NCBI GenBank assembly: GCA_026387475.1
Contig: JAPLLN010000049.1
Coordinates: 16,556 to 80,555, forward strand
Length of the DNA: 64,000 bases
Direction: 5' to 3'
Source of the DNA: Candidatus Omnitrophota bacterium
GTDB taxonomy: Bacteria; Omnitrophota; Gorgyraeia; Gygaellales; Profunditerraquicolaceae
Of this stretch, positions 1-42,663 are shown piece after piece. How positions within the stretch are numbered: position 1 is the first letter of the stretch; each line of letters begins with the position of its first letter. The position numbers and the translations under genes were made by a program. The notes beneath the pieces are model-generated. The model searched no databases and had not been told where the DNA came from. It saw nothing but the letters and a program-made list of their open reading frames with translations.

Positions 1-3000
1 ATCTTGCACCTTGCTTAGTCTTCGCGCTTCTGGCATCCGAAATATTGACCTCATGATTTGATTTGTCAAAAAGCGTAAGGTCACTGACATTCATTCTTGC
101 TAACCCTGCAACCACGTTGATATTGATAAAGTCAAATCCTGAGATGTCTTGCCTTAAGAACGGCAGGCTAAGAGTAGTCTCGGGTATTGACTTATCAAGC
201 AGATATGCCACCTTTAAGACAGTTTCTCCTTTGCGGGTTTTCTTGGAATCAAATATAACGGATATCCGCTCTTCCCCTTCAGAGCTAACAATCCTCGCGC
301 TGACGATTGTTTTTCTATCGGGGCTAAACTCTATTACCATGATCCAATCTTCATGGCCTTTAATCTTCTGGCTTGATTCATCGATCCAGGCGACGACATC
401 TTTCAGATTCTTCTCGGTTAACGCGGACCCACTTCTTACATAAAAACCGTTATCATTATAGTAATACTTACGCTTTAACGATAAGCCTTCATTTGTTTTC
501 TCCCCAAAATCTATTACGGCCATACCCGACATCTGGATACCGTTTACAACCAGCGGACGTCCAAAGAACTGCACTGTCTCTTCTCCGGGGTTAGTCTCAA
601 TGCCGTATCTCCTTATTACCTTTCCTTTGTCCCTGTTTTCTTCGAACTTCGTTCCTTTTACATACCCCCTGTCTTCAACCACCATTACCGTCATAGGTTT
701 GCCATCAAGTCCGGGATAAATAACTGTTTTCGGAGTCACATAAGAACGGAAACGTATGACTCCTAATTTACCGCCAAGCTCGGGATAATCACGCGTCTCT
801 GAACCAGTCTCATTGTTCTGGGAATCGCGCTGGATCAAAGCGATAGTCTTTTTGTTTAAATCAATACGTCCGGTCTCATCGCCTTCGCCGTAAGTCTCGA
901 TTGTAACCGCCCTCGCCTTCAAAACCTTACCTTTGTAATCATTGCGCGGCACATACAAGACAACATCATGCTCTTTCCCGCCATTAAGAGCAACTCTCGT
1001 CTTAAACACTACTGCCCATCCGATAAGTTCTCCCTCTTCTCCGGTAACAGGATTATACGCGTATAAATTGGAGATCTCTTTCCCGGCGAATTCCGGCTTC
1101 CATTCTCTTGCAGACATACGGGTAGCAAAAGGCATATCATCCCTATCATAGACCATCCCTAAGTTCTCCTGATAAACGGAATCCTTCGGGCTACCCTTCA
1201 TATAAAGCCTCAACAGCCTGTAACCGGATGCGCCCAGGCGCAGCAATCTTATCTCTCCGCTGTCAAATTTCTTGGCAAATTCAGCGTAATTCTTGTAGAC
1301 ATCATTAGGTAATACGAAATAGCCTTTTCCTGCAATACCGTTGGCAAGCTCGGCATCGGTAAGTTTAGGCATCCTAACCATCAGATGCTCAGCGCGTATA
1401 TCATTCATTACTTCATCGCCTAATTTATTGAATTCAATGGTAGCGCCGTTGACATAGCTGGTCAGGAGAGGATTAAACCCGCGCTTCTTTAATGACTTAC
1501 CGAGTTCGGAATTGAATGATGCATTTCTATACCAGAGGACTTCTTCATAAGCATCGCGCACTTCATTGAAATTGGAGTCAATAAACCACGGATACCAAGC
1601 TCCGGACTCATTGGTTTCAGGATGTCTGTTGCCGGGATAAGGATTATGAATGGAGTAAACCGGATTATTTCTATCGGTATGCAGGTCTACTACCATTTCA
1701 CGGGTCAGGCGCGTCCTCAAAGTGCCCCTAAGCGGATCAGGAACATTGCTTAAGGCAACCACAGGCTTATTACCTGTCTTCAGGGTTCCCTTTGTAAAAT
1801 CTACCTGTGCCCTTAGCGCCTCTTCGGGAACGCCGATTAAAGCATAACCCTTCTTATTGAAATTAGATCTCTCGGCGGTCATCCCGCGCTCATAAAGAAC
1901 GGCTAACGCCGGCTCTCCCTTGACGTAAACCGTGGAGATATTCGCCCTAAACCCGTCAGGTAAAACGCGTCCGGCCAAGAGTACCGCCATCTCTCTCTCG
2001 GTGAACATCCTGAACGACCCGCGATTCCCGCCGATAGGCATAGTATAGAACTCGCGGCCTAACTCCAGCATCAACAACTTGCCTTCTAATCCTAATACCA
2101 ATTTCCCGTTCTTACCTTTATAATTGACTAATTCATAGCTGTAAGCTATGCGTCCGTTAGCGTCAATTACCGGCCTACCCTTATAATCTTTGACCTGATT
2201 CCCGCGGACAAAACCGCGGATAAGCGCATCAGTTAAATCCTGCGCATTCATATACTCCAAGCCGGCATTCCTGTCCTGCACCGCGGCCAGGCCGCTGATC
2301 AATCTCGGCGCTATATCATTGATATACTTAAGCCCGGGCTGGACGAACCCGACAAAATCCCCGTCTATTAATACGAGCGCTTCATTCATTTCTTTCGGGC
2401 ATTCGATAACCTGATAAAGCCCCGGACGATTAACCACCAGAGTAATATACTTAGGCCCTCTTCTTAATTCCATGCCATAGGCCTTTATCTTCTGATTGAC
2501 CGCTGCTAACGCAACTTCGTTTTCCAAAATGCTCGTCTTAGCCAAATCTATCGGATTAAGTATTCTGATAGTCTTGCCATCCAGACCGTAGCCTAAACCT
2601 AAGCCAGAATCCAACGCCGCGATATGCTCTTCGTTTAACGGCGCCCAATTGAGCACCCGGCCTATTGTTCCGTCGGCAAATACGCCGCGGGAAGTCTTGA
2701 GCCGTTCGCCTCTCTCTTTAAATTCAGGCACGGAAACAATATCCTGTTTACCGAGCAGCTTGCTGTTAAAGAATTTTGTGATCTCCTGAGTAGTAATATC
2801 GCTAAACTTGGAAGGCCTGACTATAACGTAGCCGTTCTGATCAAACGCCGTCTGCGGAGCAAGTTTAAACATGGTCTTAAGCACAGTGGCGGGAGAAATG
2901 CTGACTGACTGATAGCTTGCATTCGCCTGCGCCATACCCTGATCACCTGACATCATGCCGACATACAATTTATATTCAGCCCATTTCCTTACTCCGACTC

Positions 3001-6000
3001 CGGCTGTCTGCGGAGTAGCTATTCTTTCTATTTTCACATCCGGTATAGCAATCTGCGGAAGACGGATATACCTCTTTAATTCATTTTTCCTCTCCGGGTC
3101 ATTAGCCCAATCAGTCCAGAATTTCTTGTAGGTATCCCAAGTAAGATTCCTCTGGTCAGGGATGGTAAAGAGCGGGTGATCCTGCTCATCCCTGATCTCC
3201 CCGCCAATAGAAACGCTGTTACCGTAAGCCTTTTTGTCTCCAAATTCTACTACCGCCGGGATAAGCACCCGCTTACCCTGTACCATATGCCATTCTGCAA
3301 ACGGCTCCTGCCAAATAAGCACTGTCCCGCGCTTCAGCGGGAATGAACCTTTTTCAAGTTCGATCTCCTGATCGCTCTTAAGCGTAACCGTAGGCAGACG
3401 GTCTAAGTCGCTGCGATTAAAGCTGTAGAAACTCCGGGTAAGACAAATAATCTTCATTACCGGCGCGCGGAGCACTGACGGAAGATTCTTATCTTTCGAG
3501 ATGATTGGCTGTTGGGCGCGCAACGCAGCGTCTAAAGCAGCCGAGGCATAACTAGGGATTATCTTACGATGTCGTAAAGGATCATGATAAAGAGGATAAG
3601 GCGTAGATGTGGATTCCTCGATGGCAAAACCCATATCCATCGGAGATTCGATATAGCTAACCTTGCCGGTATAATCATCTGTGGCTGCGCCGAATTTCTG
3701 GGTCATACCGATGAGATAACGCGGCCCGTTATTCAGAGCTTCGACAGAAAGAATAGAAGGCATAGTCTTATCTTCCTGCATAAGGCCATAGGCGGTAAGG
3801 TATTTTTCCGCGCCCTTTACAAAATAACGCTCCTGGACAGCGAAATCGCGCTTATGAGTCTTATAATTGTAGCGGATGATTATCTTTGCCTCTCCCCAGC
3901 GCAACTGAAAATAGCTGCAGTCAGGCTGCGGGTTATAAATCGCCTCAAAATACATCATACGCAGGTCTTCCGATTCAATTACCACCACAGGATAGAATTT
4001 ATTGAATAATTTCTCCAGCGGCTGGACCGGGTCAGGGACTATCCAGCGCTCACCGTCAATTTCGAATTCCGGAACATCCACGCCGATACCGACCTTTCCG
4101 AAATTAATACCCGGTGAGAAAATATTAAGATGAAACCCGTTTTTATTGCGTTGCGGATAGATAAGCCCGCCTTCGCGAAGCTCTCTGTTCATAAAATGGC
4201 GCTGATATGTCCATTCGCAAAGCTTATCCATAATGTAATAAGCGGCGAGCGGAGGATAGGCAGTGCCACTTGCTATACCTTCAGCGGCAAGCGCAACGCT
4301 AGCAGCGTCTCCCAGCAGTCCGTTTGCGCCGATGCCGCCGGTAAGGCCTCCGCCGAAATTAAAGTTATGTATTATCGAACCGCCTAAATAATGCAGGTTC
4401 AGGCTTATGTCAAAAAGCACAAACTGGGTACGCGGGTCATCGGCTTTAAGTTTGCGCGCCATCTCTATTTTCTTCTGAAGGTCAACGAGAGAATTATTGA
4501 TATAATTGTGCATATGGGTGAGAAGGACTTCTGCTTTTCCCGGATCAAATGCGCGGTGCCTGAATTCATTAAGCGCCCCCACCGGTTTATCCATGCGGGT
4601 TCCCAGAATCATAGGATTGGTCCTGCTTTGAGTAAAACCATACCACATGGTTGAGGCCAGCGACTTCTTGCCCAGAGGAGTAAACCAATCATGGCCGGTC
4701 GGCTTGCCAAAACCAGTAGCATAGGGGAATGTGCCGTCTTCATTAGCGGTACCTTCTACCTCGCGGGTAAGCTGATCCGCGATAGTATTATCGCCAATCT
4801 TACGCAGGGCGGCGACCATAGAAAGAGTAAATTCCGGAGAGACCATGCGGCCGTCTTCCTTCTCTCTCCCTTCAGTCCTCCCGGTAGCTACCTCAACACC
4901 ATCCAAGCCCTTATTCCCGCGCCTGGCTGCCAATCGCCCTTCATCATTTGTATAATCCAACCCGCCTACGTATCTTTCGTTATATTTTATTCTTCTTACC
5001 CTTGCTTCCTGGATCGTATCATGCAGGAGGCGGGAGGCATTAACTCCTCTGACTCCGAGGAGCCTCTCGACATCATTGGCGTTTTCAGTGCTTAAGACTA
5101 GCCACGGGGCAATATCCGAAGCAAAGGTATCATCAAACCTGTTTTTAGTCTCCTCGAAACCGCGCGCCAGATACCAGCGTCTTACCCTATGATCAATAAG
5201 CGTCGTCTGTATCCCAAATATTTCGCTGACGTATTCCTTATAAGCCAAAGAGTTCCTTATGAAATGATTAATCCCGTAACGGCCGTCTTTATCGCCGATA
5301 GTCCACTCCAGGCGCCGGATTAATTCCGGAGAGTTACGTATCCCTAATGCGCTCCCTTTTTCGCGCAATAATTTTATGAGGTTATTCAGAAACGCCCGGC
5401 TTGAGACGCTCTGTTCGGTAGAATAATATGTGCTTAATCTCTCTTTGCCGTATTCATCTATTCTAAAGGTACGCAGGCCGCCGTAGGCAGGACTGCGCGG
5501 GTCAGTATTCTGCAGACCCATCAAATAATCGGCAAGCTGCCAGGCGAAATTAACGAAAGCCGTATCCTGCGCGGTGTAATTATTCTTGTAATACAGATAC
5601 CTTGCTATTGAGTTCCCGAACCAGGCATTCTGCCCGGCATCCTGTTTCTTCTCCCAGACCTCGCCAAACCTAAGGCTGATGCCGTTAGGAAGTCCGAATT
5701 TACCGAGATAATACTTCTGATAAATTTCAATCATAGAAGCTGCATGCTCAAATTCTCCGCCTTCCACACAATCAATGATTGCCAGCGCCGCGTCGTAGGT
5801 AACCAGGGTCTCCATCAAGCGCGGGTCATCCGGGTGGCTAAGCACTAAGTTGGCCCAGATTTCACGCAGCTTCTTATCAGTCTTGTTCTGCTGCAGACTC
5901 TTCTTTAATTCACCTAATTGATCCTTAAGCGCTTCTAATCTCTTATTACGGTCTGTCACAGCTAATCTCTTGTCCAGGCTAAAGGCGTTCATGTACTGCG

Positions 6001-9000
6001 ATAACGCCTTTGTTGCTTTTATCGCTTCCGGAGTAGGCAGGCCGGCAACCTTTGCCTCCAGCTCCATGACCTTGGCCTGCGTAACCTGCCTGTCTTTCCT
6101 TATTTCAGAGATGAGCGCATTATAGCTTTTATCCAAAGCATCTATGCTGGCGACTAATTTTACTTTTAACGGATTAGCGGCCAATCTCTTGACCATCTCC
6201 GCCCTGTCTTTGGCTAATTTTTCAATGGCATTCAGCTGATCCTGTTCGCGGAACTTATACCAATCAAGCTCCTGGCGGGCATCAGCCAGCTTCTTATTTG
6301 CTGCTTCGACAGCTTGGTCTACGGCTTGAGGAGTTACTGATCTGGCTTGAACTGCAGGTTTTGCAGCGGGTAAGCTGACAGGGGCCTGTTGAGCATCCCC
6401 AACAATATTCAATCTCTGCCCGATCACCAGCCTATTCGAATGCTCGTTAAAAATGTGCATATTGTATTTAAATATATCCCTCCACTGGACATTGTATTTT
6501 GCGGCTATTGAATACAAGGTTTCTCTCGGCCGGACTTCGTGGGATATAGGCTTATTGACCAACTTATGAGATACAGGAGGAAGGATCTCTCCCGGAGCGC
6601 CGGGCACGTTCAAGGATGCGTTGGCATCTTCAGCTTTAATTAAGGCCTTAACGGCAACTCTGTTTTCGTCAGCCTTGATTTTTGCGTCGGTTATCTGCAC
6701 AATGTTAGTTGCGGGTTGAGTTACTAATTCTACTGAATTGGTCGGAGTAATGATCGGTGCGGTAAGGACATTAGTGGTTATTGTTGCGGCAGCGACTAAA
6801 TTAGTGGTGGTTTGGCGTAAGCCGGAGAAGAGATTCATGAATCTTTCGATAATTCCCGGAGGACCTGTAGCCATAACCGGCCCGGCTAAACGATGCGCTG
6901 CGTTAGTTTCAACTGATGCCACTTTACCTGTTTGAGTTAAATCCGGAGTAACAATAATATTAGACGGCGGTACTACTTTGGCTGCGGGAATATTATTAGT
7001 ATTAGTAACAGCGGGTACGGGAACAGGTGCAACAGGTATCTCCTCTGCCGCGCCGGCGTTCGGGCCGGTTAACGCCGCCAAAGGTGAAAGCAGATATCCC
7101 ATCGCATCAGTAGCTATCCCTAAAATATCTATTCCGGTGATATTATAAATTAACGCAGCTTCAAGCTGGCCCCAGGAGATAGCGCCCAGGTTATGCTGGG
7201 TATCTTCCAAGGCCATGGCAATTACGTTTATCGGCTCGCCGACCAGGCGGACCGCATCCTGCAACATAGGAACTGAACTCTGATAATTCGCCATTTCATG
7301 GCCGATATTAATAACAGCGGCGATTTCCGCGCCGATCAAAGACATATACCAGAAGGAATTGCCGAATCTGCTTCCCTCTAATAACCACTGGGCAAGGTAC
7401 GGATGCCCCTGATTTGCATAATGACGGGCAATAGCTACACCCACTCCCTGCCCGGCCTTATAAATATTCCAGGACTCTGACGGATGCCTGGCAACAACCG
7501 CAAGATAGGCTAATAATGCCAAAGGTGAAGTTAAAGTAAAGGCCAGCGCCAATACCGCCGGAGCTAAACGATAAGTAATCTTGTTATTGAATCTATTCAA
7601 GAACGGCTTCTTCGCAGCCATAAAGCGCTGCTCCATTAATTTTACTAATCCCGGCCTGCCGCCGGCATTCACAATACCCTGCTCAAGCATATCTCTGACG
7701 AGATCGCCCGATACTTCCTTATTCTTAAACGCATCCAGCAGTCTGCGAGCATCAGTTGTTACGCGGTTTGAATTGTATCTGTTCTTCGCCAGGATATCCT
7801 GCAGGGAATTATAAGTCGATTTAATAGAAATAAGCTTCAGGCCCATGACGATCGACGCCAACCTGATAAATTCGCTTAAGGTATGCGGTAAGCCCCAGTA
7901 TAAACTGTCATTAACATGAAGAGGGAGGCCTAAAACCATTAATACATTATTGGCAAAGACGCTGCTTACGAATATCATCAATCCTCTGCCTGCGGCAAAT
8001 CTGACGATACCGGATACGGTAGGCGCGAATAAGGCCAATTTTGTTGCGGTAGCTTTAATAGCATAGCGCTTTGCGCCGGCTAATACTATTTCCTCGCCAA
8101 ATAAGGCTGCTTCTTTATCGACTTTCTGTTTAATCTCCTGGTCTCCGGCAAGGTAGCTACGGGCAAAATCAGCATAGTCGAGGTATCTCCAGGTATAATC
8201 CCAGAAGAAATTCCAGACTACCTCGACAAGATAACGGATACCTAAGCCCATGGCTGCGGCAGTTAAGACAGCGGAAAGACTAACGCTTGTAGAGAGCGCC
8301 GTAAGAACTGCGAATGTAACAGCGGTCACAAGCGGCAGGGGGGTCTTGAATATCTTATTTACCGCAACATATAATGAAGACTTCGGTGTCTGATATTCTT
8401 TATTGTGAACAGCGCGTAAGGCTAAGGCTTCGGTCTTATCTAATTTAAACGCCGCAAGGCCTAATCCGTAGAATATCCTCGCGTCCTTGCCCGCTCTTAT
8501 ATTCTTAATGTCTCTGGCAAGCAAGGCTATGCCAACCATTACACCTGCAATGAGGAAAATCCCCAGTAATATAGTAGGCAATAGTAATATAGCAGGTACT
8601 GTTGGCGCTAGCTTTACTGCTAGAGGGGCAAGGTATTCAGAAATTGCCACTCTTAACACAGGCATAAAATATTTGAGTGTGTAGATAAAACCAATTAAGA
8701 GAGATGCATGCCAAACCAAAACCGAGCCATTTTTGGTCGTTAATTTAGTTTTTAACGTGGTTCCAACACTAACAGGAGAAGAGCTATTGGTTCTTCTCGA
8801 TGCCACCCTATCTTTAATGACCTTAATTGCTTTCTCCGGATTCACGCAGCCCTTTCCAAGTTTGCCTTCTAAGAAATAGCTATCTTTTAATGGCGTTGCT
8901 GTATCAATTATCACATTTATAGCTTCTGAAGACGCTAACGAATGATCTAGTGATAGCAAATTAGCGGCAAGGGCACTAACTTGGGGAGCAGCGAAAATAA

Positions 9001-12000
9001 ATGCTGAAGCATCGATTCTTACCACGGGAATAAAAGGATAACGCAAATTAGCTGCAATGTTAACTGTAGAAGGAGCGGCAACGCTAACGTAACTACCATA
9101 ATTAGAGAATTTAGCTTTACATTCCCCCCTACTGTCTAATCCGGCTACCGCAATCACCTCTTTATATGCCGCTGGATAAACAGGGATATCCATATTATCA
9201 CCGCCGTTAGCGGCAATAACTACCACACCCTTAGACTGAAGTTGTCTGATTAATTCGTGAGCATTCTCGTCTTCATTATATTCGTAGAAACTGGTATTTA
9301 TTATTACAGGGAGCGTTGGATTGCTGTTTTTAAAATCTAGAACCATTTTTAAGCTCCTCAAAAATCTATCGCGATTAAATTCGAGATGCATTGATTCCAA
9401 TTTTGTACAAATAGCAAAGATCTCCACTATATCTTCAAATCGCTTATTTCCTTTTTCAAGTGACCATCTATATAACTCCCCATAATTCCTCCAATAGTAA
9501 TCCTTACTTCCCTGTTTTATAGAATAATTTCTTAGGAGATTGAGTAATTCATTGCGCACCCCTTCTTTAATACTTGAAAAATCTTTACTGTTTTTAATTC
9601 CAACTATTACTCCACTATCACCAACAGCTGAGATATTTATCGGGATAATCTCGCAGTCATTATTTCTCTCCCGGATTACTTTAGCAACCAATGTACCGTT
9701 AAGATGCCCGCCGAAGTTATAGAAGAATATCGAGTTAAATGGAACCAAAAAGTTATTACCATACTTCGGTTCGGTAATCTTTAATAAGCTATCCCACAAT
9801 TGAGTCTTTAGATCGTATTTTGTATCTCCCATGTATTTTTCCCCAAAACTATGGCTGAGACCAATACCAAATGTTGATAACGTTCCAGAATCAATAATAA
9901 ATACGGTTACCTTTCTCCTATTTTCTTTTCCACACCCGCTAATTAAAGATGTACCTCCAAGGGCAAACATGGTTGTTGCGCCAATAAACTGTCTGCGGCT
10001 CATGCTCAATCCCGCCACCGCCGCGCCGACTTTAGTCTCAACTGAATTCAACGGACTTGAGGTCTTGTCCGCCGAACCGGTGCCCATAGACGCTTCTGCC
10101 TGCCCTAATGGTAACAACCCCTGAACAGAGTCACCACCCCTTACTCCTTCTTCTCCTAATCTGGCTCTCGCTAACAAATTCATAATTAATACCAATATAT
10201 CTTCCCTAGCTTGAACAGAAGGAATAAAGGTGATTTTACGTTTTTCACTGGCAAAGTCAGGGCTCTGTTTAAACCCTCTTGTCAATTCCACACCAAAATG
10301 TTCTGCGACTTCTGCTGGAAATTCTTCAGGAGCGTCATGGGAATCCTTTTTGCCAGCGGTAAGCATATTCATCCACTCTTTAGCCCAGGCGCCACCTAAT
10401 TTCCCAAGGAGTTCAACGTTAGAGATCTCAAAAGGTTTTCCGGTTTCAAGGTCATCTATTACGGTTATCCTTGATAAAAGCAAGGCATTGTGATATGCGC
10501 CGAGCATGGCATCGCCAATTTCATCCTCAGTAATAGGGTCTAAGGGGTGGGTAGAATCTTTTCTGTTCCGGGTTAGCTGAGAACTCGAAACACCCAAATC
10601 CAGAAGCACAACGTTTCCGTCAACATTAACCCCGAAATTATGGAATTTATTGTCTGAAACAATAACCCCTCTGCGGGCCATCTCGATATAAATCTCATAT
10701 GCCTTTCTCAAGATATCCACGCCTATGGCGTATTTACGTTCAAAATTACCATTGCCCAAATAAGCAAAAATGCCCTTACCTTCTGACAGATCCACTAAGT
10801 AATGCAAGATAGTCCGTACCTTTTCCTGATAAATCTTACCATCGCTAAGCAGCACAAATGGTGCGGTCAATCCTCCTAATCTTTCTTGCATAAGGATGTA
10901 ACTTCCGAGCTCAATACTACATTCAGCCGGATTTTTAGGAGTTTTGCGTACAATATTAAGGTTGGGATCTACCTCAACAACAAACTCTGCAGAAGCAGAT
11001 ATCCTGCGCTCAGGCACGAAATTCATCATTGCCTTATACACATGCCCTTCTTCAATCCCGAGGATTTTTGTCAGCAAATCATCAATCTTATATAGCAATG
11101 ACTGGAGGCACAACTTGCAAAAATCATCCCGATTTCCGTCTTGATAGACATTCATCAGATGATGGGCGTCCCGCTGGACGCTTTCGCTAAACTTCTGGCG
11201 TTCACTGTTAAGAACATTCTTTATATAACCATAGAACCTGGCTCCATATTCTGCCTGCACACCGGCGTTAGGACATTGTCCTTGCTCATTTAACATCGCG
11301 CCAAGATATTCTCTTCCCTTTTGCGTAACTGCCAACATATCAATTGCCCAGCGATGATACGGACTTAAACGTGTAATACCTTGAGCGAAACAGGCACCCA
11401 GGGAAATATTATTGTCGTGGGCATAGCTGTTATGCAAATTTGCGAATATCTCCGCCCAGCGTTTCATCTCTATAGCCCTACGATCCGGAGCAAGCATGCG
11501 GTAACTAATGCTTAGGTAGTCTTCATAAAAACTTCTGGTAAAATAAATATGGCTTTTGCCATCAGGACTAAAATACGAAATAGCGGAGACCAAATTTTCA
11601 AGGTCTTTAGCGTCATCGGTAATCGGGAAACCAAATAACGCGCCCACCCCTTCATTAACTACATGTAAAACATAATTCTCACGATTAAGAGGAACTTCCA
11701 GCCCGATAAAGCCGTAATATGCTTTCACGGCTTTCCAGTCAACTACATCAGGGTTAATAATAGTCGTTATATCATCTTCAAATCTGGCTAGCCTGGTCTT
11801 AAGGGCAGCGATTCTAAGGTTGAATTCCGTACCCTGCATATTCGGACCATGCAGACAGAGGACCCATAACTTAGAAGCTACTTCGGTAAGGGCTGCCGGC
11901 GAAGAGGCGTCTTTCTTTTTTTGATCAAGGATTACTTTAACTTTCCCTATTCCCTTGATTATCTCGAATAACAGCACACAGTCTTTGTCGGCCTTAGTAA

Positions 12001-27000: not shown

Positions 27001-30000
27001 CCGTAGCATAAGTAGTATTAACTCCATTAATATCCTGAAGCTGAATCTTTCCTTTTTCATATAAAGAAACTCCTCCTAAAACGCGATGTTCGGCATTATC
27101 CGCCCAGAGAGGAGTAGTATTTACGGAATTGATCTCACCTGTTTTCGGATCAGTACCGAACCCTAATAAGCCTAAACCGTTAGAAAAAGTAGCGAGACTA
27201 CCTGTATGTTCATATTTAAACGCAGGTTCGCTGGTCAAGCGCACTGCCCCCTCATCCACATGAATCGTACCGTTTCCGGAAGTACCCGAAGACGGTAATA
27301 CACCGTTAGCAAACGAGAAAACCTCTCCGGCAATTTTTAAGGCCGGAAGTGGAGTAGAATCCGTTCCCTGATAATAGTTGCCGTAGCCGTAAACCCGGAC
27401 TTCTGCTACCGCATTTCTAAACTCTTGGGTTCCGTATTTTGCAACCGCCTGACTAAAATATTTTCCCTCAATTTCGCTATTTTCGCGATTCCAATTCCAC
27501 TTGGTCTGGCCTTTTTCAGCAACAGGTTTACCACCACTGCCTAACACTACTTCATATAAATTCTTAGTATGATCTATTACTAAACGCTGGCCTATGCTTA
27601 CATCAAATCCCGTATTCTTGTCTTTGCCTAAATTCAGCCAAAGAAGTTGATTATCCGGACCACCCACATATTTTTTCCTGCCATCAGTAACTACCGCCTG
27701 TATATTCTGTCCTGCCAAAGGAGTAATTCCGAAACTATCCTTGGAATTGATTTCAAAAGTGCCGTTTCCAATACGGGTGACCACTCCCTTATCACTACGG
27801 AAGAAAGCTATAAGCTTGCTGTCATTCAGGCCCCAAACAGTATCCTGACGAGTAAGACCATTCTTATCCTTGACAGTAACTGTGCCTCTATTAACTCTTT
27901 CCGCAGATGCCCCTACTGTATGCCAGGAATAGTCTGCCCAAAGCAGAGAGTTATCAAAAGTAGCTTTTCCGTTATTTATCTGAAAGGCTAAAGGCACTTC
28001 GCCGCGCGAGATAATAATATCACTACTGCCAGGCATAACTCTATCTGTTACCCTGACCGCACCGTGAATAGCCAAAGCTAAAGCAGAACCACCCTTACCT
28101 TCAGTTTTTGAATTTCCGGGAGCGAAACTCCAGGTCTCCGGGAAAATAAACGCCAAGGCTGTTGCCGACCTCCCGTCTCTCATTACGGCGTATTCTTTAA
28201 TTTTATTAGATTCATTATATGTAGCAGGAGAATACTCATTCCTTCTTAAATACTGCTGCGCTAAAGCGTCGGTGTAAGTATTCCACCCTCTAAAGCTCTT
28301 CCCGCTTAAACTGCCTTCATATACTTTAACCCAATGGTCGATGTCGACCTTGCGCTGGAATGATTCCTGTAAATTCTTATTTTGATAAGATACCCACGAA
28401 CCTGACATTTTGTCTAGTAACTTATCCGCAACCCAAGTGTTCTTTGCCCCGATAGGCTCGAAACCCAGAGGATTTTTCGCAGTTGCCGATACAATCGTAA
28501 TCCCTTCGCCACCGATCTTGTGATCCCAGAAATTAATTCCCTTCTCATAGCCCGCCCAAGAATAGCGCTCCGGAGTCCCCGGGGTGTAATATTTTGCGCC
28601 GGGTAAATCCTTAGCTAATAGACCGTTCCAACTTACCTGCATTGTGCCGCTAAAAATATTAATTTTGTCGCTATATTTAGATAGACTGCCTAATACGTAA
28701 TTTTCGTAGGAGAGCGGAGTGCCGGTTTCAGCCCCGATTCCTGAAGTATATTTTCCCTGAGGTAGAAGAAGGTTAGTGCTGGCAAAGGTGGTGAAGTTAC
28801 GCGGAGATTCATATCTTCCTTGCGGGTTTAACCCAAACTGTATGCCCAGCATCTGAATCGGTTCACGGTTGATGGCAATAGACCCATTAGAATCTATTGT
28901 TCTAATAACGGTTTCGCCGCTCCAATATTTTGAATTAAAAGCAATGTCTCTGGAGCGTCCGGTAGAATAAAAAGGAACCGGCTTAATATCAACGCCTGCG
29001 ATATTACGAGACAAACTTGTAAAAGGCACCACTCCGCCTTCGTATCCTACGACTGGAGTTTTAAATTGAATTTTTTGATCGGTGAGCGTAGATATCCCAT
29101 CTGCGGTAAATTGTTCGCCATGAATATGTATAAGAGGATTTTTAGCGATAGCTCCCGGGCCTATGGAAGAAATTAACTTATTCTGAATATCTTCTACTTT
29201 AATAAAGGCCCTTTCGGGCATTACCCCTGTTACCTGAAGCCCGTTCTTGACAGCGGAATAGGATTGCCCGGCCTGCGCGATATTTGAAAAATTCATCCCA
29301 AAATAATTAACATAGTCTTTTCCTATGCGATTAGCTGCGGGGCTTACTAGATCATTATTCTGCGCGGACGGGGCACCTCCTATATAACCGATGGAATCTC
29401 CGGGATTCAAAGTAATCGCCAACTGGTCTCTGTTGTTAAAGATAAACCATTTAGGATTATCTATTGTATATCTGCCCGGGGATAAAACCGCTGCCTTAGC
29501 GATATCTTCCGCGCTGCTTTCAGGACCGACTTTCCCCTGTTGCAGGCTATTAAGCATCCTGAAATTGATAGCGTGGTCGGTTTTATTCTGGCTTTCTCCG
29601 TAAGCAAAAATCCTGTCTTCTGCATTTCTGCCTACGGCTAAATTTAACGCCGAGAAAGGTAACGGTTCGCTTGTCTTCCACCACCGGCTGCTCGGCATAT
29701 TGATTGTAGTATCGCCGACGGTTAATTGACCGGGAGTTGCTGACCCATTTCTTAAAGAGAACATTACTTGATTAGGATTAACCATTCTCCACGCTGAATT
29801 ATCGTGATTCCCATACCAGAGCCCTCCCCTTTCATCCTGATATAAACCAGTTCCAAAGAGTACGTTGGGGTTAGCCATATTATGAGTAAAAGTAAGAACA
29901 TGCGGGGTATCTTGAATTACATTTATTCCTCCTATAGTCTGTATCTGCGGTTCCAGTATGCCGCCTTCTTTTAGCATCATCCTCCAGGTAACAGGCGTGC

Positions 30001-31889
30001 CATCGGCGCTGGTTGTGGCCAACATTCTACTATTCTCCCAGGCTTCTATGGCACTGTTTGAATCCTGAAATACGGGAACGTTTATGCCGTTAGCATTTGC
30101 ATAATTAGCTACCTGAATATCAGGATAGAAATCGGAACGGTGGGCATACGCATTATTTGCCGGCAGGATTTCCGCATCTCCGTTACTAATTAGATTACGT
30201 AAAGGCACAACTCTTGATGGGGTTAGATCGTTTACATCACTATATATATTTACATTATCTCCGACTAATTTTACCCTACCACCCGCGGGAGTCATCCCGG
30301 CAACCCTACCTTGATTCCAAAGTTCTTGCAAGTTGCTGTCTGTTAAAGAAGACACTGCTGGTATTTGCGTTTCTTGCTGTGGCTGTATAACCTGCTGTAT
30401 CTCCTGCGGCGCCTGCACAGGCATTGCAATGGACTGCGTCAAATCGTTAGGATATCTATCCGCGATCCTTTCAGTTGCCAGCTCTCTGACAGGAAGGCCG
30501 TTATTGTATTCAATGTAACGGAAATCAGCACCCTGCGGGATGGTTGTCGAACCCGTGAAGTTAGCCGAGAGATCGACCGGCAAAGAAGGTAAAGAAGTAA
30601 CCGGCTGCTGAAGCGAGAGCGACGGCTGAATGGACATCGGCTGCGAAGCTAAATTTGACGAAATGGGTTGAGCTAAAGGCGCATTAAAATTGTTAAGTTG
30701 ATTATTGAAGTTAAAATCAGCCATATTCTGGTTAAGCGGGTTGGACAAAGATGCAGTGGAGTCAAAGTTATTCATCGCGGGATTATTGATGTTATTAATA
30801 AAATCCATCCCGACTGCGCCCGTGAGGCCCAGCGGAGTGTTAACCAAACTAAGTGAGCCATCGAAACTAGGCATTGCCGTAGGTACAACTGTGCCTGCCC
30901 CGATCATCCCAGGAGCATCATAAGTCGGGGCAAATTGCGCTCCAAAATCGGCAACAAATGGTTGGCTTGCCATCTCATCCATGGCTTGGAATGACTGCTG
31001 ATCTGCCTGGTTCCAATCGCTCTGCGAGCCGTTATCTACGGCAAACACTCCTTCGCCTTCCTCATCCGCGCCCATGACCTTCTTAGCTTCTGCCTCGCTT
31101 AATGCTTCCATCCCTGCCCCCAGTTTCTCCACCAGGGCGTTTCCGGAGAACTTCTCCTGGAACTTATCCAAAGGCAGATACTTTTCAGTATGGTTATCGC
31201 TGTAATAAACCTTGCCATCGCTGACGCGGGTGACTAAAACGTAGTGGCCGGGATTAAGGTGGGCAATAAATGGTGTCAGCTCTTGTATATTGGATGTCAG
31301 GATCTTGACCGCATAAAGCTTGTGGTTAAAGAATTCGCCGGCGCGGGATAATGCGTATAATGAGTTCTTGATGACCTTGGGATTACCTTCCGGCTTGACC
31401 ACATCATTTAAAATATCGGTAGTCAGGGCAAAGACCGCGATATCCTGCTCCTGCACCTGCGCGCCCTTATAACCCAGATAATCAAAAAGGGCCCTTGAAC
31501 CGCAGGGCTTGCCCATCAACCAGTTGTAAATCTCTTCTATTCTGGCTTTGGATATATTTAACGGCTTGTCTAATTGTATGGTCAGGGTAGGTGAAAGCTG
31601 TATTGAAGTTATTTTCTTTCCGGATATTTCAGTGAGGATATTTTTGATCGCCAGAGGGACTGCGATATCGTGCTGCCCGCCCGGGATGACAGGAGCGAGA
31701 GAATAATTAAGCCCAGGCTTCTGCCAGAGAACGCGCCAGTCATACTCCATTGCCTGCGCCGGGATCTCCGGTAAAAAAACAGCCACCACGATAAAGGCGA
31801 CTATTCTTATCCAGGTCTTGAAGCTGGATTTGAAAGGAGCCTTCTCTTCGTGCTGGCCGATCTCGCCTTCTGGGTTTGTGGTCTTCACT
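1..31889 (-). CDS. Giant multidomain protein, partial (3' end beyond the window start); more than 10,600 codons visible. N-terminal signal/TM segment, then repeats and peptidase-like, REC-like, subtilisin-like, TM, LysM and coiled-coil modules.
   Basis: ATG at 31889 (MEKVKTTNPEGEIGQHEEKAPFKSSFKTWIRIVAFIVVAVFLPEIPAQA, a hydrophobic signal-like segment), with an in-frame upstream ATG at 31982. Hand translation of the minus strand from 31982 down to about 15,700 and from about 10,200 down to about 600 met no stop; the span between was sampled only at the REC-like (about 12.0–12.3 kb) and M24-like (about 13.6–14.5 kb) modules. The ORF track shows only short (<=203 aa) plus-strand ORFs across 1–31,900 and omits ORFs without an in-window stop (the edge serine recombinase is also omitted), consistent with a single open minus-strand frame running off the edge. 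Confidence 0.8.
6410..6550 (-). other. LysM-like peptidoglycan-binding motif inside the giant ORF, followed by a coiled-coil segment (about 5,900–6,400).
   Basis: VRPRETLYSIAAKYNVQWRDIFKYNMHIFNEHSNRLVIGQRLNIVG (LysM pattern). A heptad-rich segment follows: ...ELDWYKFREQDQLNAIEKLAKDRAEMVKRLAAN.... Confidence 0.4.
8950..10010 (-). other. Subtilisin (S8)-like module inside the giant ORF, preceded by an internal twin-arginine / lipobox-like sequence.
   Basis: In-frame ...LSMSRRQFIGATTMFALGGTSLISGCGKENRRKVTVFIIDSGT... (RRxFIG Tat-like motif, hydrophobic stretch, L-I-S-G-C lipobox-like, then the D-S/T-G Asp motif of S8). Downstream is ...NGGDNMDIPVYPAAYKEVIAVAGLDSRGECKAKFSNYGSYVSVAAPS...RIDASAFIFAAPQVSALAANLLS (an S8 Ser-region-like segment). 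The upstream frame stays open through this signal-like sequence. Confidence 0.45.
11990..12340 (-). other. CheY-like receiver (REC)-like domain inside the giant ORF.
   Basis: VLILVVDDNPHDAYFAIRGVRKLLEASGITATFEEASSLGTAVTRIKDQNKPKFDLVISDFHLLGPTALTLLKEAPEIKDIMVIRSV. This gives the DD pair, an Asp in the DLVISD context, and an (I/V)R(S/T) strand, which is the REC fold pattern. Confidence 0.5.
13640..14450 (-). other. M24 (pita-bread fold; Xaa-Pro / methionine aminopeptidase-like) peptidase domain inside the giant ORF.
   Basis: Translated motifs VVIDFGAQKGEYNNDMTRAFWVG (D...D metal ligands), GHFTGLAGHEG (GHGxGxxxHE) and GMIFTIEPLV (FxxEP). Their order and spacing match the M24 family. Confidence 0.6.
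19400..19900 (-). other. Caspase/CHAT/gingipain-like (clan CD) His–Cys dyad domain inside the giant ORF.
   Basis: Translated segment AQVIVIGGHGTSESVKLSSSSELNLSNVGRLREISDRLAQGGVIVLESCSTGEGKG. It shows hydrophobic strand–GHG, then 41 residues, then hydrophobic strand–ESCSTG, the characteristic clan CD His/Cys spacing. The His codon is at about 19743–19745 and the Cys codon at about 19622–19624. Confidence 0.5.
26000..28300 (-). repeat. Intragenic tandem repeats of about 290 aa inside the giant ORF (at least 2 clear copies, probably a degenerate third).
   Basis: DNA-level near-repeats about 875 nt apart. Example: 26430–26526 (ttagcgaacgagaaaacatctcctgcgatttttaatgtcggaag...) versus 27305–27410 (ttagcaaacgagaaaacctctccggcaatttttaaggccggaag...). 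A second pair is 26250–26320 versus 27120–27200. Translated units share ...LYEV(V/K)LG(S/A)(G/N)GKPV...NSEIEG(K/R)Y(F/Y)S...R(V/I)YGYG(N/E)Y(Y/K)QG...LP(A/T)LKIAG(E/D)VFSFANG...(L/M)LGFG(T/V)DPKTGEINS(V/I)NT(T/V)PLW. Confidence 0.55.
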
Positions 31890-32209
31890 TTTTCCATATT
31901 AGTATTATTACCTATATGCAAAGAGGGGAAAAACAGTTTTCCCCTTACCCCAGCTTCTTCATTATGAGCTTCGTGATTTTCGGTCGTCATATTGGAAAAG
32001 TTTTTATTTAGTATTTGTAAAACTATTTATTAAGCCATTAAATAAAAAAACCGAGCTGTAGAATCCACAACTTACGTCGGTATTCGGCAGCCCGGCCATC
32101 CTAAAACTACACCAAAATTTTTTGAGGACCCGTGGCTTTGCGCCCCTGCTTTTCAGCAGGTTTGCCCTTATCGTTTTCCGTGGCTTTACTCTGTATCAAT
32201 TACATTTAA

Positions 32210-32237
32210 AGTATATAATATAATCCGTCGCTGTCAA
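32210..32237 (-). promoter_or_regulatory. Sigma70-like promoter for the giant gene (TTGACA-N16-TATACT on the minus strand).
   Basis: The reverse complement of 32205–32240 reads cTTGACAgcgacggattatattaTATACTttaaa. The -35 is at 32232–32237 and the -10 at 32210–32215, which implies a 5' leader of about 220–315 nt. Confidence 0.45.
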
Positions 32238-38265: not shown

Positions 38266-38456
38266 TACCTTTCGTTGGTAATCTGCGTTACCCCGGGCTC
38301 ATACTGCTCGCCCTGGCCGAATGTATCCGCGGTCTCGCGCGCGCGCTCGTGGAATGCCCGCTGCAAAAATATGCGCATCCCGATAAAAGCGCCCAGCACG
38401 ATCAAAACCAATGCCACATATTCAATCAACCCCTGCGCCCTAATGTTTGGCTTCAT
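38265..38456 (-). CDS. flp: Flp/Fap-family pilin-like protein (class III signal peptide).
   Basis: 63 aa: MKPNIRAQGLIEYVALVLIVLGAFIG.... It has the G-x(2-4)-EY motif followed by a hydrophobic helix, and shares the motif with the other small ORFs in this locus. Confidence 0.55.
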   Translation of the reverse strand: MKPNIRAQGLIEYVALVLIVLGAFIGMRIFLQRAFHERARETADTFGQGEQYEPGVTQITNER

Positions 38457-39237
38457 AATCCACCGCTATGTTAGTGACGCTCTTGCCTAAATCCGGCAAT
38501 TCTTTCTCAAAAGTAACCTGGGATAACCCGATTTTACAGGTATCATTACGGTTATTAGAAAATACCAGCTCTTTCACTGCCGCGCGGGTATTCTTTACGC
38601 CTGCCATCGGCACTTGCGCAAGGGGGCTTTCGCTCTCCAACTTCCACCCCCGGAGGACCATATTATTCTTATAAAACAAAACAACTTCAGCTAATCCGTC
38701 CTTGCAGTAATAATTCACCGATTGCCCGCCGGGCCCTTCTATGAGATTTATCAATACCGCTGCCGGATAAACCGGAGCAATATCTTTTTTAGGCTTAGCC
38801 AGGAGGCGGGTTTCGCCTGCCGCCCCGGGCTCTTCTTTTATTTTACCGCGGGAGACCGTAAACCTGGTCTTGCCGTCTTGGAAATATTGCGCCGGAGGAA
38901 ATACGATGATAATACGCTCCTCTCCGTTATCAAACGCCAGCATATTATCTATAACAGCGGCATTAGCCGGCGGAACATTCTTACCTAAATTAATTTCTCT
39001 CCAATTAGAAGCAACGAGTTGTTTGCGGTAGAAATTTTTTACCGCATCCCCGCTTTCATTAGTTACGTAATAGGTAAAATGCTGCTTTGAGCCGGCGATC
39101 AACCTGTCCTCTTCTATTGTCTTCCGGGCCCCGTATGGCACCGGGGTAGAGGCCTGCCCCCACCAATCAGCATAAAGCCAGCTAACCTGAAAAAGGGTTA
39201 TAATAATCAATGCTAATAAAGTACGCTTACCTGACAT
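38440..39237 (-). CDS. Secreted hypothetical protein (265 aa) within the Tad locus.
   Basis: ORF track. N-terminal signal-like segment MSGKRTLLALIIITLFQVSWLYA. It is co-oriented and tightly packed between the tadG-like and flp genes. Confidence 0.55.
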   Translation of the reverse strand: MSGKRTLLALIIITLFQVSWLYADWWGQASTPVPYGARKTIEEDRLIAGSKQHFTYYVTNESGDAVKNFYRKQLVASNWREINLGKNVPPANAAVIDNMLAFDNGEERIIIVFPPAQYFQDGKTRFTVSRGKIKEEPGAAGETRLLAKPKKDIAPVYPAAVLINLIEGPGGQSVNYYCKDGLAEVVLFYKNNMVLRGWKLESESPLAQVPMAGVKNTRAAVKELVFSNNRNDTCKIGLSQVTFEKELPDLGKSVTNIAVDYEAKH

Positions 39238-39246
39238 TTTATCTCC

Positions 39247-40650
39247 TTACTTACCCGTCGTGCTAAGCTTATCCGTATCGATAATATCCGAGTCAAATTC
39301 CATTCTCGGCGGGTATATTTGACCGCCCTGCTGGCCAATATTTCCCTGAAAACTTACCAAGCTGTAACTATAAATATCCGGATACGCGGTCTGCCAGAGG
39401 CCCAAGTCCGTTCCCTCGTGATGTTGATGGGTGTGAACCGTAACAAAGCGTTCATTATCCCAGGGCTTTACGTCGTTAATCCAACAGATAATATCCAGCG
39501 CGTCTCCTTCGCTATCTTTTGTCGAACGCTCCGGCATTAATCCGGCTTCAGCCGCAACAAGCAGGGCGATCATGGCGGGGATTAAAGCGATCGCTGCCAG
39601 CACCGCTGCATTACCTACCCCTGCCGACGCCTGGCCTGCTGCAGATAAGTTGCACGCAGCTACATAACCATCTGGAAATGGTTTGCCACATTGAATCACG
39701 GCAAGAGCGAAAAACTTAGCAGCAGTCCTATATGCCTCACCAGCTGCAATCATATCTGCCTTAGCGCTCAAACCCAGGCCTAAAATAGAGGCTAAATCCG
39801 CTAACTCCACGGCTAACGGAAATACGCAAACCTGTAAATCAAAGGTATCCGGTTTTTCAATCGTCGAGTTTATCTTCACAAAATGGCCCCTGTCTTGTCC
39901 GTCTTTCCACGGATAAATATATTCATCCGGAGGGGTGTCTTCTTTAGCCAGATTAGAGATAGAAGTCAAAAACTCACTGAAGCTCCCCTGATAATCACGT
40001 TTTTTATCCGGATCAGTTACATCTTCGGGCGGGTCTCCGCTCCTTAATTTGTTCCCTATCCCGCTGTTGGCAAAAGCAAAGGTATAAGAATAACCCTTGG
40101 CATAATTGTGTTGTTTTTTCGCAGTCTCGCGTATCTTCAAATAGGTGAAATACTGGCCTGTCCAGAAACCCAGAACAGCGAGATTTAAAGCTATGATGAT
40201 CTTAGTAAAGCTTGCTAACTCTGCAGCGGATGCGACTGCTGCTAAGTTAGCCACACCAGATTTTGCTAAACCAATAGGAGCAGCGCAACAGGCTGCTCCT
40301 GTCGCTATTATGCCGGCTGCCGTGGCTTGATTTGCATAGGTTTGCGCAAATGCTAATTTTATCAGTGCCGTAGCAAAAGATACGCTAAAAGAAGCGTAAA
40401 ACATCCAGTATTTTGCTTCTAACGTGCTATTACTCTGGGCAATGCCGTTAAATAAGCTCGCCATAGTCGAGCCTCCGGCGAGCGCTCCGGAGTCTGCGGC
40501 GTTAGCCCCGTAAGTCTTGGTCATCGCCACCTTACTTAAATTCACCGAGACCATCGCCATAATAATGAGCACAACCAACACGATGATAAATATCGGGACC
40601 ATCTGGCCCTGTTCATACCTGAATTTATTTTTGGAAAAATTTGTAAACAT
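39247..40650 (-). CDS. tadG: TadG-like pilus assembly / minor pilin-like protein (467 aa).
   Basis: N-terminal segment EQGQMVPIFIIVLVVLIIMAMVSVNLSKVA resembles the TadE/G-like N-terminal helix. Its position after the tadE-like genes matches canonical Tad locus order. Confidence 0.45.
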   Translation of the reverse strand: MFTNFSKNKFRYEQGQMVPIFIIVLVVLIIMAMVSVNLSKVAMTKTYGANAADSGALAGGSTMASLFNGIAQSNSTLEAKYWMFYASFSVSFATALIKLAFAQTYANQATAAGIIATGAACCAAPIGLAKSGVANLAAVASAAELASFTKIIIALNLAVLGFWTGQYFTYLKIRETAKKQHNYAKGYSYTFAFANSGIGNKLRSGDPPEDVTDPDKKRDYQGSFSEFLTSISNLAKEDTPPDEYIYPWKDGQDRGHFVKINSTIEKPDTFDLQVCVFPLAVELADLASILGLGLSAKADMIAAGEAYRTAAKFFALAVIQCGKPFPDGYVAACNLSAAGQASAGVGNAAVLAAIALIPAMIALLVAAEAGLMPERSTKDSEGDALDIICWINDVKPWDNERFVTVHTHQHHEGTDLGLWQTAYPDIYSYSLVSFQGNIGQQGGQIYPPRMEFDSDIIDTDKLSTTGK

Positions 40651-40662
40651 CGCCGCCCTTCC

Positions 40663-40911
40663 TTACTTCACTATAACCTTATTCTCAGTAAGCGCCTCCG
40701 GGACATAATTCCAACTCACGGGCTGAATGTAGTCGTCTTTACCTGTCCCGGCAGTAACGCGCGTATTATTGTAAGCGACCTGGCGTTTGATCATCTGATT
40801 ATTAAACCAGAACCAGATATTCACCATCCCGCCGAGGACAATGACCAGGATGATAAACGCCATCACTGTCTCAATGGTCCCCTGTCCTTTATTATTGCGC
40901 GCGCTCCTCAT
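40663..40911 (-). CDS. TadE/TadF-like pseudopilin (82 aa).
   Basis: MRSARNNKGQGTIETVMAFIILVIVLGGMV... has the G-x4-E class III signal-like motif plus a TM helix. Confidence 0.5.
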   Translation of the reverse strand: MRSARNNKGQGTIETVMAFIILVIVLGGMVNIWFWFNNQMIKRQVAYNNTRVTAGTGKDDYIQPVSWNYVPEALTENKVIVK

Positions 40912-40912
40912 T

Positions 40913-41572: not shown

Positions 41573-41581
41573 TTTAGCCCC

Positions 41582-41992
41582 CTACTGCTGCTGTTCGGTA
41601 TTGCTGGACGTATTCGAACTCTGATAAACAACGCCGGAATCCGATAAAGCTGCCGAGACCCCGGTAGTATCGATAATCCTGCGCGTATCCACCACATTGG
41701 AACTTGAACTGGATTGCGCGACTTCATTTAAACTGATAGCTCTGGCTCCTCCCAACATATCTATAGAGGTCATATTCGAAGCAGAATTAGAAGTGCTGTT
41801 GCTTGAGACTATGGCATTGACATAATAATCCGCAGCCTGCATCTGGTTCCCGCCGCCGATAAAATTATCCGCCATATCCTTGACCTGCCCCTGAAAAGAG
41901 CGCTTGATATAGGTGCTCATCGCAAACAAAACAATAGCGATGATCCCGAAAATAATGCTGTATTCCAGAACTGAAGCGGCTCTTTTATTCAT
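41582..41992 (-). CDS. flp: Flp-like pilin with a Ser/Thr-rich C-terminal extension (136 aa).
   Basis: MNKRAASVLEYSIIFGIIAIVLFA..., with an S/T/N-rich tail. Confidence 0.5.
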   Translation of the reverse strand: MNKRAASVLEYSIIFGIIAIVLFAMSTYIKRSFQGQVKDMADNFIGGGNQMQAADYYVNAIVSSNSTSNSASNMTSIDMLGGARAISLNEVAQSSSSSNVVDTRRIIDTTGVSAALSDSGVVYQSSNTSSNTEQQQ

Positions 41993-41994
41993 TT

Positions 41995-42324: not shown

Positions 42325-42325
42325 T

Positions 42326-42487: not shown

Positions 42488-42503
42488 CGCGGCCCCTTTC
42501 ATT

Positions 42504-42662: not shown

Positions 42663-42663
42663 C

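Follow-up and report, generated by a model that had tools for sequence, protein, structure and literature searches.

How a cell inserts proteins of 10,000-100,000 residues that cross the membrane dozens of times, and whether it cuts them into pieces, is a question raised by the giant proteins of the Omnitrophota. The locus described here poses it in concrete form. It lies on a 64,000-nucleotide stretch of a Candidatus Omnitrophota bacterium contig (JAPLLN010000049.1, positions 16,556 to 80,555; hereafter the window), where a giant open reading frame (ORF) carries, thousands of residues from its N-terminus, what reads as a twin-arginine translocation (Tat) lipoprotein signal followed by a subtilisin-like module of peptidase family S8. 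Published surveys of such giants leave the cleavage points undefined (10.1101/2023.11.21.568195) or discard internal signal-peptide calls, which a 2026 preprint deleted as chunking artefacts (10.64898/2026.06.07.730766). An earlier note on this DNA, made from its letters alone, had proposed either the fusion of a former stand-alone lipoprotein protease gene or an internal translation start or processing site yielding a separately exported protease. We favour, with moderate confidence and on sequence evidence, a cassette captured in frame, whose retained internal signal would export the S8-like module in place in a Tat-like manner.

A lipoprotein signal inside a giant reading frame

The minus-strand frame of the ATG at 10003-10001 is bounded upstream by a stop at 32029-32031, has its first ATG at 31990, and contains no stop from there to position 1, giving a partial ORF (1..31990, minus strand) of at least 10,663 codons whose stop lies beyond the window start. 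Its domains come in the order C39-like, Peptidase_M24, S8-fold module and LysM, the Pfam match to Peptidase_C39 near the N-terminus being borderline (21.7 bits against a cutoff of 22), and its Cys content is 23. Since no stop lies directly upstream of the internal signal, the signal sits inside one giant ORF; the frame stays open through it, as the earlier note had read, and the alternative that the note itself raised, a separate gene behind a stop just upstream, is not what is found.

The signal, MSRRQFIGATTMFALGGTSLISGC (9932..10003, minus strand), is contained in the peptide MSRRQFIGATTMFALGGTSLISGCGKEN, which begins at residue 7330 of the giant ORF. A Tat-type SRRQFI motif (9983-10000) is followed by a Gly/Thr-rich, weakly hydrophobic stretch and by a lipobox, LISGC (9932-9946), whose Cys (9932-9934) is residue 7353 of the chain. 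Read against the consensus (S/T)-R-R-x-F-L-K with a weak hydrophobic stretch behind it, the sequence gives SRRQFIG and then an uncharged run of 17 residues, whose sum on a crude Hessa scale is +3.25 kcal/mol, while I-S-G-C ends the stretch as expected of a lipobox, [LVI][ASTVI][GAS]C, behind a hydrophobic stretch with basic residues before it. The combination of RRxF[IL], uncharged stretch and lipobox occurs once in the giant ORF, against 0.0005 expected per residue-shuffled ORF, and LISGC is the only lipobox in its 10,663 residues. Directly behind the hydrophobic stretch is a positively charged flank, GKENRRK (9911..9931, minus strand), which is Sec-avoidance-like when compared with the features described for internal Tat signals (PMC5449189). 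As a motif, then, the Tat-type lipoprotein signal of the earlier note is borne out. It departs from such signals in its place: Tat signals are normally N-terminal, and this one starts at residue 7330 of an uninterrupted ORF; lipoprotein cysteines fall within the ~40 first residues of the precursor, and this one is residue 7353. On no other ORF of the 64-kb window was an N-terminal Tat-type signal found.

An S8 fold with a dismantled active site

The region behind the signal (8804..9910, minus strand) was analysed with hidden Markov models (HMMs), BLAST, alignments, AlphaFold and Foldseek, and it is a subtilisin-fold (S8) module that is probably catalytically dead. The S8 Asp motif, TVFIIDSGT (9881-9907), lies 8 residues past the lipobox Cys, directly behind the signal as had been noted, and the Ser-region segment, DASAFIFAAPQVSAL (8969-9013), lies 293 residues past the Asp. 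The HMM search that had been suggested as a check returns Peptidase_S8 (PF00082) at 37.5 bits against a cutoff of 21.8, with only profile positions 113-279 of 288 covered, and subtilisins in the PDB match the module with an E-value of 2.5e-10. AlphaFold2, given a 67-sequence alignment, predicts the module with a mean predicted local distance difference test (pLDDT) score of 75.8, a predicted template modelling (pTM) score of 0.73 and 190 residues at or above a pLDDT of 90, two insertions and the loop that would hold the Ser being predicted with low confidence; from the single sequence the pLDDT is only 34. In a Foldseek search of the PDB the top 50 matches are all subtilases, with E-values of ~1e-12 and a probability of 1.00.

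The active-site columns were located in two independent MAFFT alignments, one of the subfamily and one with 66 generic S8 proteins, and in an HMMER pairwise alignment. Only the Asp is kept (Asp38; 9890-9892): in place of the His stands Asn102 (9698-9700), in place of the oxyanion Asn Gly268 (9200-9202) and in place of the Ser Ile336 (8996-8998), the Gly-Thr-Ser columns reading Ala-Phe-Ile334-336 in the MAFFT alignments; the HMMER alignment shifts the Ser column by two, to Ala334, again without a Ser. Nearby, a His is found two residues and a Ser one to three residues upstream of the canonical columns; at the expected places this copy lacks the full set of Asp-His-Ser and oxyanion Asn. The module is thus a genuine S8 fold whose active site has been taken apart. 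Because His, Ser and oxyanion Asn are lost it is most likely not a protease, and from its sequence we class it as probably a pseudo-protease, an S8-fold non-peptidase homologue that annotation should not name a protease. Two earlier claims are modified accordingly: the Ser region, placed about 300 residues on, is homologous to that of subtilases with the catalytic Ser itself gone, and a separately exported protease does not hold as stated for a module without catalytic His, Ser and oxyanion Asn.

These losses are shared. The stand-alone relative P0108 has the same long helical insertion (~110 residues, ~9320-9652 here) and the same loss of His, Asn and Ser, and this combination of shared insertion and shared losses suggests a maintained pseudo-enzyme subgroup rather than one-off decay. 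The module also stands out in base composition, with a GC fraction of 0.374 and a minimum of 0.319 against an ORF mean of 0.460 (standard deviation 0.032), and it holds 16 of the 25 lowest-GC intervals of the ORF. This trough is the deepest of the 32-kb ORF, coincides exactly with the S8-like module (8804-9910), is deepest over the helical insertion and extends to third codon positions. We rejected recent foreign origin as its source, the closest stand-alone relative being just 30% identical and 43% GC; relaxed constraint or the Lys/Asn/Ile-rich insertion could be the cause.

Stand-alone relatives and the origin of the cassette

An exhaustive HMMER search of 1.84 billion representatives, with members counted among the best 150, delineates a subfamily marked by the motifs VTVF(V/I)LDSG, HGSxVA, AAAGNDN, YPAAY and GTSFAAPRV. 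Stand-alone proteins make up 25 of the 37 family members among those 150; they are ordinary proteins of 250-680 residues whose N-terminal signal stops 5-15 residues short of the first strand, with a lipobox in several. P0108, for example, is a complete gene of 375 residues with in-frame stops upstream and AT-rich non-coding flanks, in which ...MAIVIGGC runs directly into GKPKRQVTVFILDSGV, where the giant ORF has ...TSLISGC running into GKENRRKVTVFIIDSGT. In P0079 ...MLNGC is joined in the same way to GSKSKEKVAVFVLDS, and lipoprotein signals are also found in P0074, in P0211, which is set among unrelated housekeeping genes, and in L014, a stand-alone lipoprotein of Planctomycetota.

The layout of these stand-alone subtilases (P0108, P0079, P0074, P0066, P0068, P0211 and L014) is that of the giant's module family: a signal, 5-15 residues, then VTVF(V/I)LDSG, HGS, AAAGNDN, YPAAY and GTSFAAPRV in this order, followed by transmembrane helices. 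The stand-alone lipoprotein subtilases form a clade of their own apart from generic S8 proteins. They differ from the embedded module in being separate genes of 375-680 residues, mostly with Sec-type signals, and in keeping the catalytic triad in most cases; the multi-helix and HEAT-like C-terminal part of P0211 has no counterpart in the giant ORF. Capture of a whole stand-alone gene including its tail was accordingly rejected, as what follows the module in the giant does not resemble that C-terminal part.

A signal peptide is sensible only as an N-terminal invention, and parsimony therefore favours the uptake of a stand-alone gene by the giant. The relatives thus support the view, put forward in the earlier note, that the segment derives from a formerly separate lipoprotein S8 gene: P0108 and others carry a lipoprotein signal placed identically, and the comparison proposed there, whether the junction exists in separate genes elsewhere, finds the signal directly before the same strand. 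Close orthologues were not found in GTDB genomes or Joint Genome Institute (JGI) metagenomes with a protein query, and word-indexed protein searches returned almost only generic S8 proteins, P0211 being the sole subfamily member among them.

Recurrence inside other giant proteins

An internal signal of the RR type precedes an embedded S8 module in five other large proteins. P0135, a fragment of 1,063 residues, has two receiver domains and then SSSPV-MSRRNFIGTMFAGVASANMLQGC...ATVFILDSG; P0152, a complete gene of 5,675 residues, reads MNRRQFLAGAMMFPLAGILGGC...VTVFVVD; P0089 (3,357 residues) has ITRREFLKKLGLTTVGLVISSYLPSC; P0153 (5,154 residues) has SRRDFLKDVATVVGGLALLPVASYIG, without a lipobox Cys; and L091 (>2,819 residues, on a 269-kb contig) reads ASSPT-INRREFLKNISLVGLGLVTTIQFPGC...VVVFILDTG. 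The signals share the form (S/T/N)RRxF(L/I), with a lipobox Cys in four of the five (P0135, P0152, P0089 and L091). Module identity of these other embedded copies to that of the giant is ~29-38%, yet the RR motif, the length of the stretch and the lipobox Cys persist. Among further embedded modules, P0101 is preceded by a Sec-type internal lipoprotein-like signal, and P0088 (identical to L007, from an Omnitrophota metagenome-assembled genome), P0126 and P0086 lack a signal, P0086 still reading GCGRKPEKQ. Overall, RR-type signals precede 6 of 12 embedded but 1 of 28 stand-alone modules (p = 0.0014, for cases that are not phylogenetically independent).

What lies upstream varies among the giants, from a kinase-like module here to receiver domains in P0135 and a deaminase in P0153, and with such differing neighbours the signal and module behave as a unit placed in different contexts. 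An ORF of >4,180 residues in a Planctomycetales metagenome-assembled genome (L008, CAYZIY010000023.1), open over its whole 12.5-kb locus, contains an S8 module of the same subfamily whose N-terminal half looks rebuilt and which has a Sec-like hydrophobic segment before it; giants with this S8 module embedded are therefore not confined to Omnitrophota.

Cassette borders, flanking modules and predicted topology

The signal and module are enclosed by the tripeptide Ser-Ser-Pro (SSP), which occurs upstream in KTSSPLNS (SSP at 10052..10060, minus strand) and downstream in the linker SSSPVSVG (8762..8785, minus strand). The giant ORF has 8 SSP tripeptides against 1.9 expected, all of them within residues 6138-7737 (8762-13579, minus strand) and mostly beside module borders. 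They often take the form (A/S)SSP(V/I/L/T); sites stand on both sides of a receiver-like module, and others precede the internal signal and follow the S8 module. The cassette has SSP borders in P0135, P0088, P0086 and L091 as well. The tripeptide might serve as a linker, as a joint for recombination or as a site for a protease.

Upstream of the cassette, a weak receiver-like module (12095..12325, minus strand; Response_reg at 18.7 bits, E 0.002, below the cutoff), a cytoplasmic domain type, follows three hydrophobic helices (residues 6412-6481), and a protein-kinase-like module (10120..11203, minus strand) with homologues P0061-P0076 lies directly before the signal. The latter is common to many large proteins, in which its downstream neighbours are different. 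It reaches no Pfam family at cutoff; its profile matches the kinase catalytic-loop region only weakly, with E-values of 0.02-0.2, and Pfam PIP49_C, AceK and ABC1 are found in 4-5 of 8 members. The family (~350 residues, also represented by P0143) has invariant LGG, K-x-x-NFG, V-L-x-D-L-G-like and RRITFIP...EEIL..IM motifs and seems to be an undescribed family of kinase-like modules peculiar to such giants.

The modules upstream of the signal are of cytoplasmic types in every case examined: P0135 has Response_reg at 75.8 bits, P0153 a cytidine deaminase and the giant ORF its receiver-like and kinase-like modules. This fits an orientation of the signal with its N-terminus inside and its C-terminus outside. 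Of the hydrophobic helices behind the module the strongest is ILLGIFLIAGVMVGIALLA (8516..8572, minus strand), which we propose as a return transmembrane segment, with further helices at residues 7887-8166. Signal and downstream helix go together: in signal-bearing embedded copies the best 19-residue segment within 200 residues past the module sums to between -3.6 and +0.14 kcal/mol, a strong transmembrane helix, in 5 of 5 cases, whereas in signal-less copies the best segment is at +5.6 or higher, no helix, in 3 of 3 (Fisher p = 0.018, n = 8). In P0088 the signal-less module is directly followed by P-loop kinase-like sequence. On the same crude scale the hydrophobic stretch is weak in the RR-type signals (+3.3 to +5.9 kcal/mol) and strong in the Sec-type signals of the family (-3.5 to +1.8), and basic residues follow the stretch of the RR-type signals.

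A proposed retained export signal and its alternatives

The explanation we favour would run as follows. A gene for a membrane-anchored, lipoprotein, subtilase-like protein would have been captured in frame, its own signal included, into an Omnitrophota giant gene, where signal and S8 module now form a cassette between SSP linkers, and the signal would have been retained since it still works. The RR motif would keep the chain cytoplasmic after the receiver-like and kinase-like modules; the weakly hydrophobic stretch would cross the membrane with its N-terminus inside and its C-terminus outside, so that the S8-fold module would lie beyond the cytoplasmic membrane; and the strongly hydrophobic helix that comes next would return the chain. 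Translocation may proceed by the Tat pathway, which is suggested by the (S/T/N)RRxF(L/I) consensus, the low hydrophobicity and the basic residues after the stretch. Most probably the signal does not mark a separate product but works where it stands, as an internal export signal or signal-anchor, and the module in this copy is most likely a binding or scaffold domain rather than a protease. The open frame, the motif, the S8 fold, the loss of catalytic residues, the N-terminal signals of the stand-alone relatives and the recurrence of the internal signal in other giants are observations; use of the signal and its pathway, and any lipidation and cleavage of the lipobox Cys, are inferences.

Several observations weigh against this explanation. 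The excised signal is the best match to both Tat-signal HMMs and yet falls below both cutoffs, with 14.1 bits against 16.7 for TIGR01409 and 12.1 against 22.7 for Pfam TAT_signal (PF10518). On the scoring that the earlier note had called for, this copy thus gives neither a clear pass nor a clear failure; two homologous internal signals, those of P0089 and P0153, pass TIGR01409 with 24.5 and 26.1 bits. Hydrophobicity was summed on a scale without position dependence, and the co-occurrence of signal and return helix comes from a small sample. The neighbour-joining tree of the family is star-like, with bootstrap values of at most 13%; with such a tree the recurrence could stem from a single ancestral fusion, and the counts lack phylogenetic independence. 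Some 3,300 residues and several helices follow the giant's signal, unlike known internal Tat signals. Lastly, this is at once the lowest-GC stretch and a catalytically degenerate copy, and the cassette could be decaying here.

An elaboration that builds on the favoured explanation and is compatible with it is polyprotein processing, in which Lgt would lipidate Cys7353 and signal peptidase II would cut before it. The chain would then fall into two: an N-terminal part held in the membrane by the former signal helix, and a C-terminal part with a lipid anchor, beginning with the S8-like module. The conserved Cys is the only argument for cleavage at the lipobox: the pattern (L/I/F)-x-(G/S)-C is kept in 5 of the 6 RR-type internal signals despite ~30% module identity, the giant has no second lipobox, and P0086 has lost the hydrophobic stretch but keeps its GCGRKPEKQ. 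West-Roberts et al. (bioRxiv 10.1101/2023.11.21.568195) likewise suspect that giants are cleaved into smaller polypeptides. Against this, a literature search yielded no earlier bacterial case of signal peptidase II cutting at a site inside a chain, and P0153 has no Cys; we hold processing only as a tentative possibility. The wider proposal, that giant proteins of Omnitrophota and related members of the Planctomycetes-Verrucomicrobia-Chlamydiae (PVC) group contain working internal Tat-type lipoprotein signals that combine export of a loop by Tat with a cut by signal peptidase II, we consider rather doubtful. If true, folded mid-chain modules would be exported as loops, the giant would be a membrane-processed polyprotein whose pieces have their own anchors, and signal peptidase II would be a polyprotein-processing enzyme in bacteria, acting at the first defined cleavage point in giants.

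That the signal is instead a role-less remnant of fusion, a neutral scar in a cassette decaying as a whole in this genome, would account for the loss of three of the four catalytic-site residues, for the GC minimum and for the sub-threshold Tat scores. We judge it unlikely, as the frame is intact and the predicted core confident, the signal is conserved at least as well as the module across six giants and co-occurs with the return transmembrane segment, and P0108, with the same substitutions and insertion, suggests a maintained subgroup.

Internal initiation, raised in the earlier note, would make ATG 10003 a second start in the giant mRNA, yielding a lipoprotein of at least 3,334 residues, or the module alone if later cut. 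An in-frame ATG does stand at the first signal residue here, in P0135 and in P0152, and the pairing of the region upstream of ATG 10003 with the anti-Shine-Dalgarno sequence (-9.5 kcal/mol) is in the top 1% of 186 in-frame ATGs and within the range of real genes of the window. That pairing, however, stems from the G-rich Gly/Ala codons of the linker; upstream of ATG 10003 there is only GGCGGGATTGAGC and no canonical AGGAG, while most window genes have a clear AGGAG or GGAGG; the GGAGG of P0152 is just 2 nt from its ATG; Met is absent from three of the six homologous signals (Ile in P0089 and L091, Pro in P0153); and near the junction there is a single promoter-like site, fewer than the 2.2 expected from shuffles. 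Such a start is possible but unsupported, and distinctly unlikely. Two genes joined by misassembly, or by a sequencing error that removed a stop codon, are very unlikely: no point in favour was found, the junction has ~22 kb of open frame before it and ~10 kb behind it, the start of this giant gene is seen again in independent Logan assemblies, and the arrangement is repeated in other genomes, including the complete 5,675-residue gene.

If the favoured explanation is right, a buried and conserved Tat/lipoprotein signal predicts the membrane side of the module behind it, and marks a topology switch, perhaps a cleavage site, at Cys7353; the one candidate cleavage site that it points to lies before this residue. 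The cassette also indicates how such giants grow, namely by taking up whole genes in frame, with their signals, between SSP linkers. Topology pipelines should retain internal signal calls.

Other features of the giant gene and its surroundings

Elsewhere in the giant ORF, a Peptidase_M24 (creatinase/aminopeptidase fold) region scores 60.8 bits (13645-14056, minus strand) and a single LysM peptidoglycan-binding repeat 31.3 bits (6400-6538, minus strand). The leader of the gene (32054-32237, minus strand) has a full riboswitch layout: a promoter-like TTGACA-16-TATACT with 11 of 12 matches (32237-32210), a full-length c-di-GMP-I-GGC variant aptamer (RF03167; 32175-32082; 76.6 bits against 59) and a terminator-like hairpin with a T-run (32072-32054). 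The aptamer is also present in Logan contig L088 and is not found upstream of the P0152 giant gene in L003; a riboswitch is unmentioned in either paper on Omnitrophota giants. ATG 31990 has no visible Shine-Dalgarno sequence.

Upstream the giant gene adjoins a cluster of Tad-domain, two T2SS-F, pilin-like (Class_IIIsignal), type II secretion/type IV pilus (T2SS/T4P) ATPase and TonB-family genes (38440-54375, minus strand), in agreement with the reported closeness of giant genes to such systems. Amid the pilus genes, an ORF of ~160 residues (~47784-48284, plus strand) has a Pfam match to Y1_Tnp, an IS200/IS605-type transposase, as read from the gene table of a matching Logan contig (L087, 731-1213).

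Comparison with known systems

Internal signal sequences are familiar from flavivirus and pestivirus polyproteins, where they send the following segment across the membrane and signal peptidase may cut. Those polyproteins differ in using the eukaryotic endoplasmic reticulum translocon and signal peptidase I, and a bacterial lipobox counterpart was not found in our literature search, which also returned nothing on Tat in Omnitrophota or on internal lipoprotein signals in bacteria. Among S8 proteases, the best NCBIfam match is to the mycosins of type VII secretion (TIGR03921), which share the plan of signal, S8 domain and C-terminal membrane anchor; the type VII context and the catalytic residues are absent in the giant's module. 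We rejected identity with mycosins (67.1 bits against a cutoff of 278.75), and identity with dentilisin PrtP was ruled out on score.

The dual Sec-Tat membrane proteins offer a closer parallel. Their internal Tat signals are governed by an RR motif, low hydrophobicity and basic residues behind the stretch (Tooke et al. 2017, PMC5449189), and the giant resembles them in having an internal RR directly before a weakly hydrophobic stretch, basic residues after it, a cytoplasmic N-terminal side and Sec-type helices upstream; the hydrophobicity is here judged on the crude summed scale only. There the final helix is the Tat-dependent one, with an exported C-terminal domain behind it that binds a cofactor (PMC5449189), whereas the giant has a mid-chain, cofactor-less S8 fold with a lipobox before it, and several helices and ~2,900 further residues after it. 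A working signal here would add to the few known internal Tat signals one that serves a domain neither cofactor-binding nor C-terminal.

With the Archaeovorin-type giants (bioRxiv 10.1101/2023.11.21.568195) the protein shares its origin in Omnitrophota, a length of >10,000 residues, a C39-like domain near the N-terminus (the borderline match above), an S8 domain, many transmembrane helices and adjoining Tad, type II secretion and pilus genes. It is unlike them in the place of its S8 domain, which West-Roberts et al. 2023 put near N-termini; the words 'lipoprotein' and 'Tat' have zero occurrences in that paper. Of the divergent SecA DEAD helicase domain of this type no hit was obtained in the 10,663 residues inside the window, the C-terminal part of the gene lying beyond it. 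Internal Tat signals and giant Omnitrophota proteins are both already known, and the protein described here is a variant of both.

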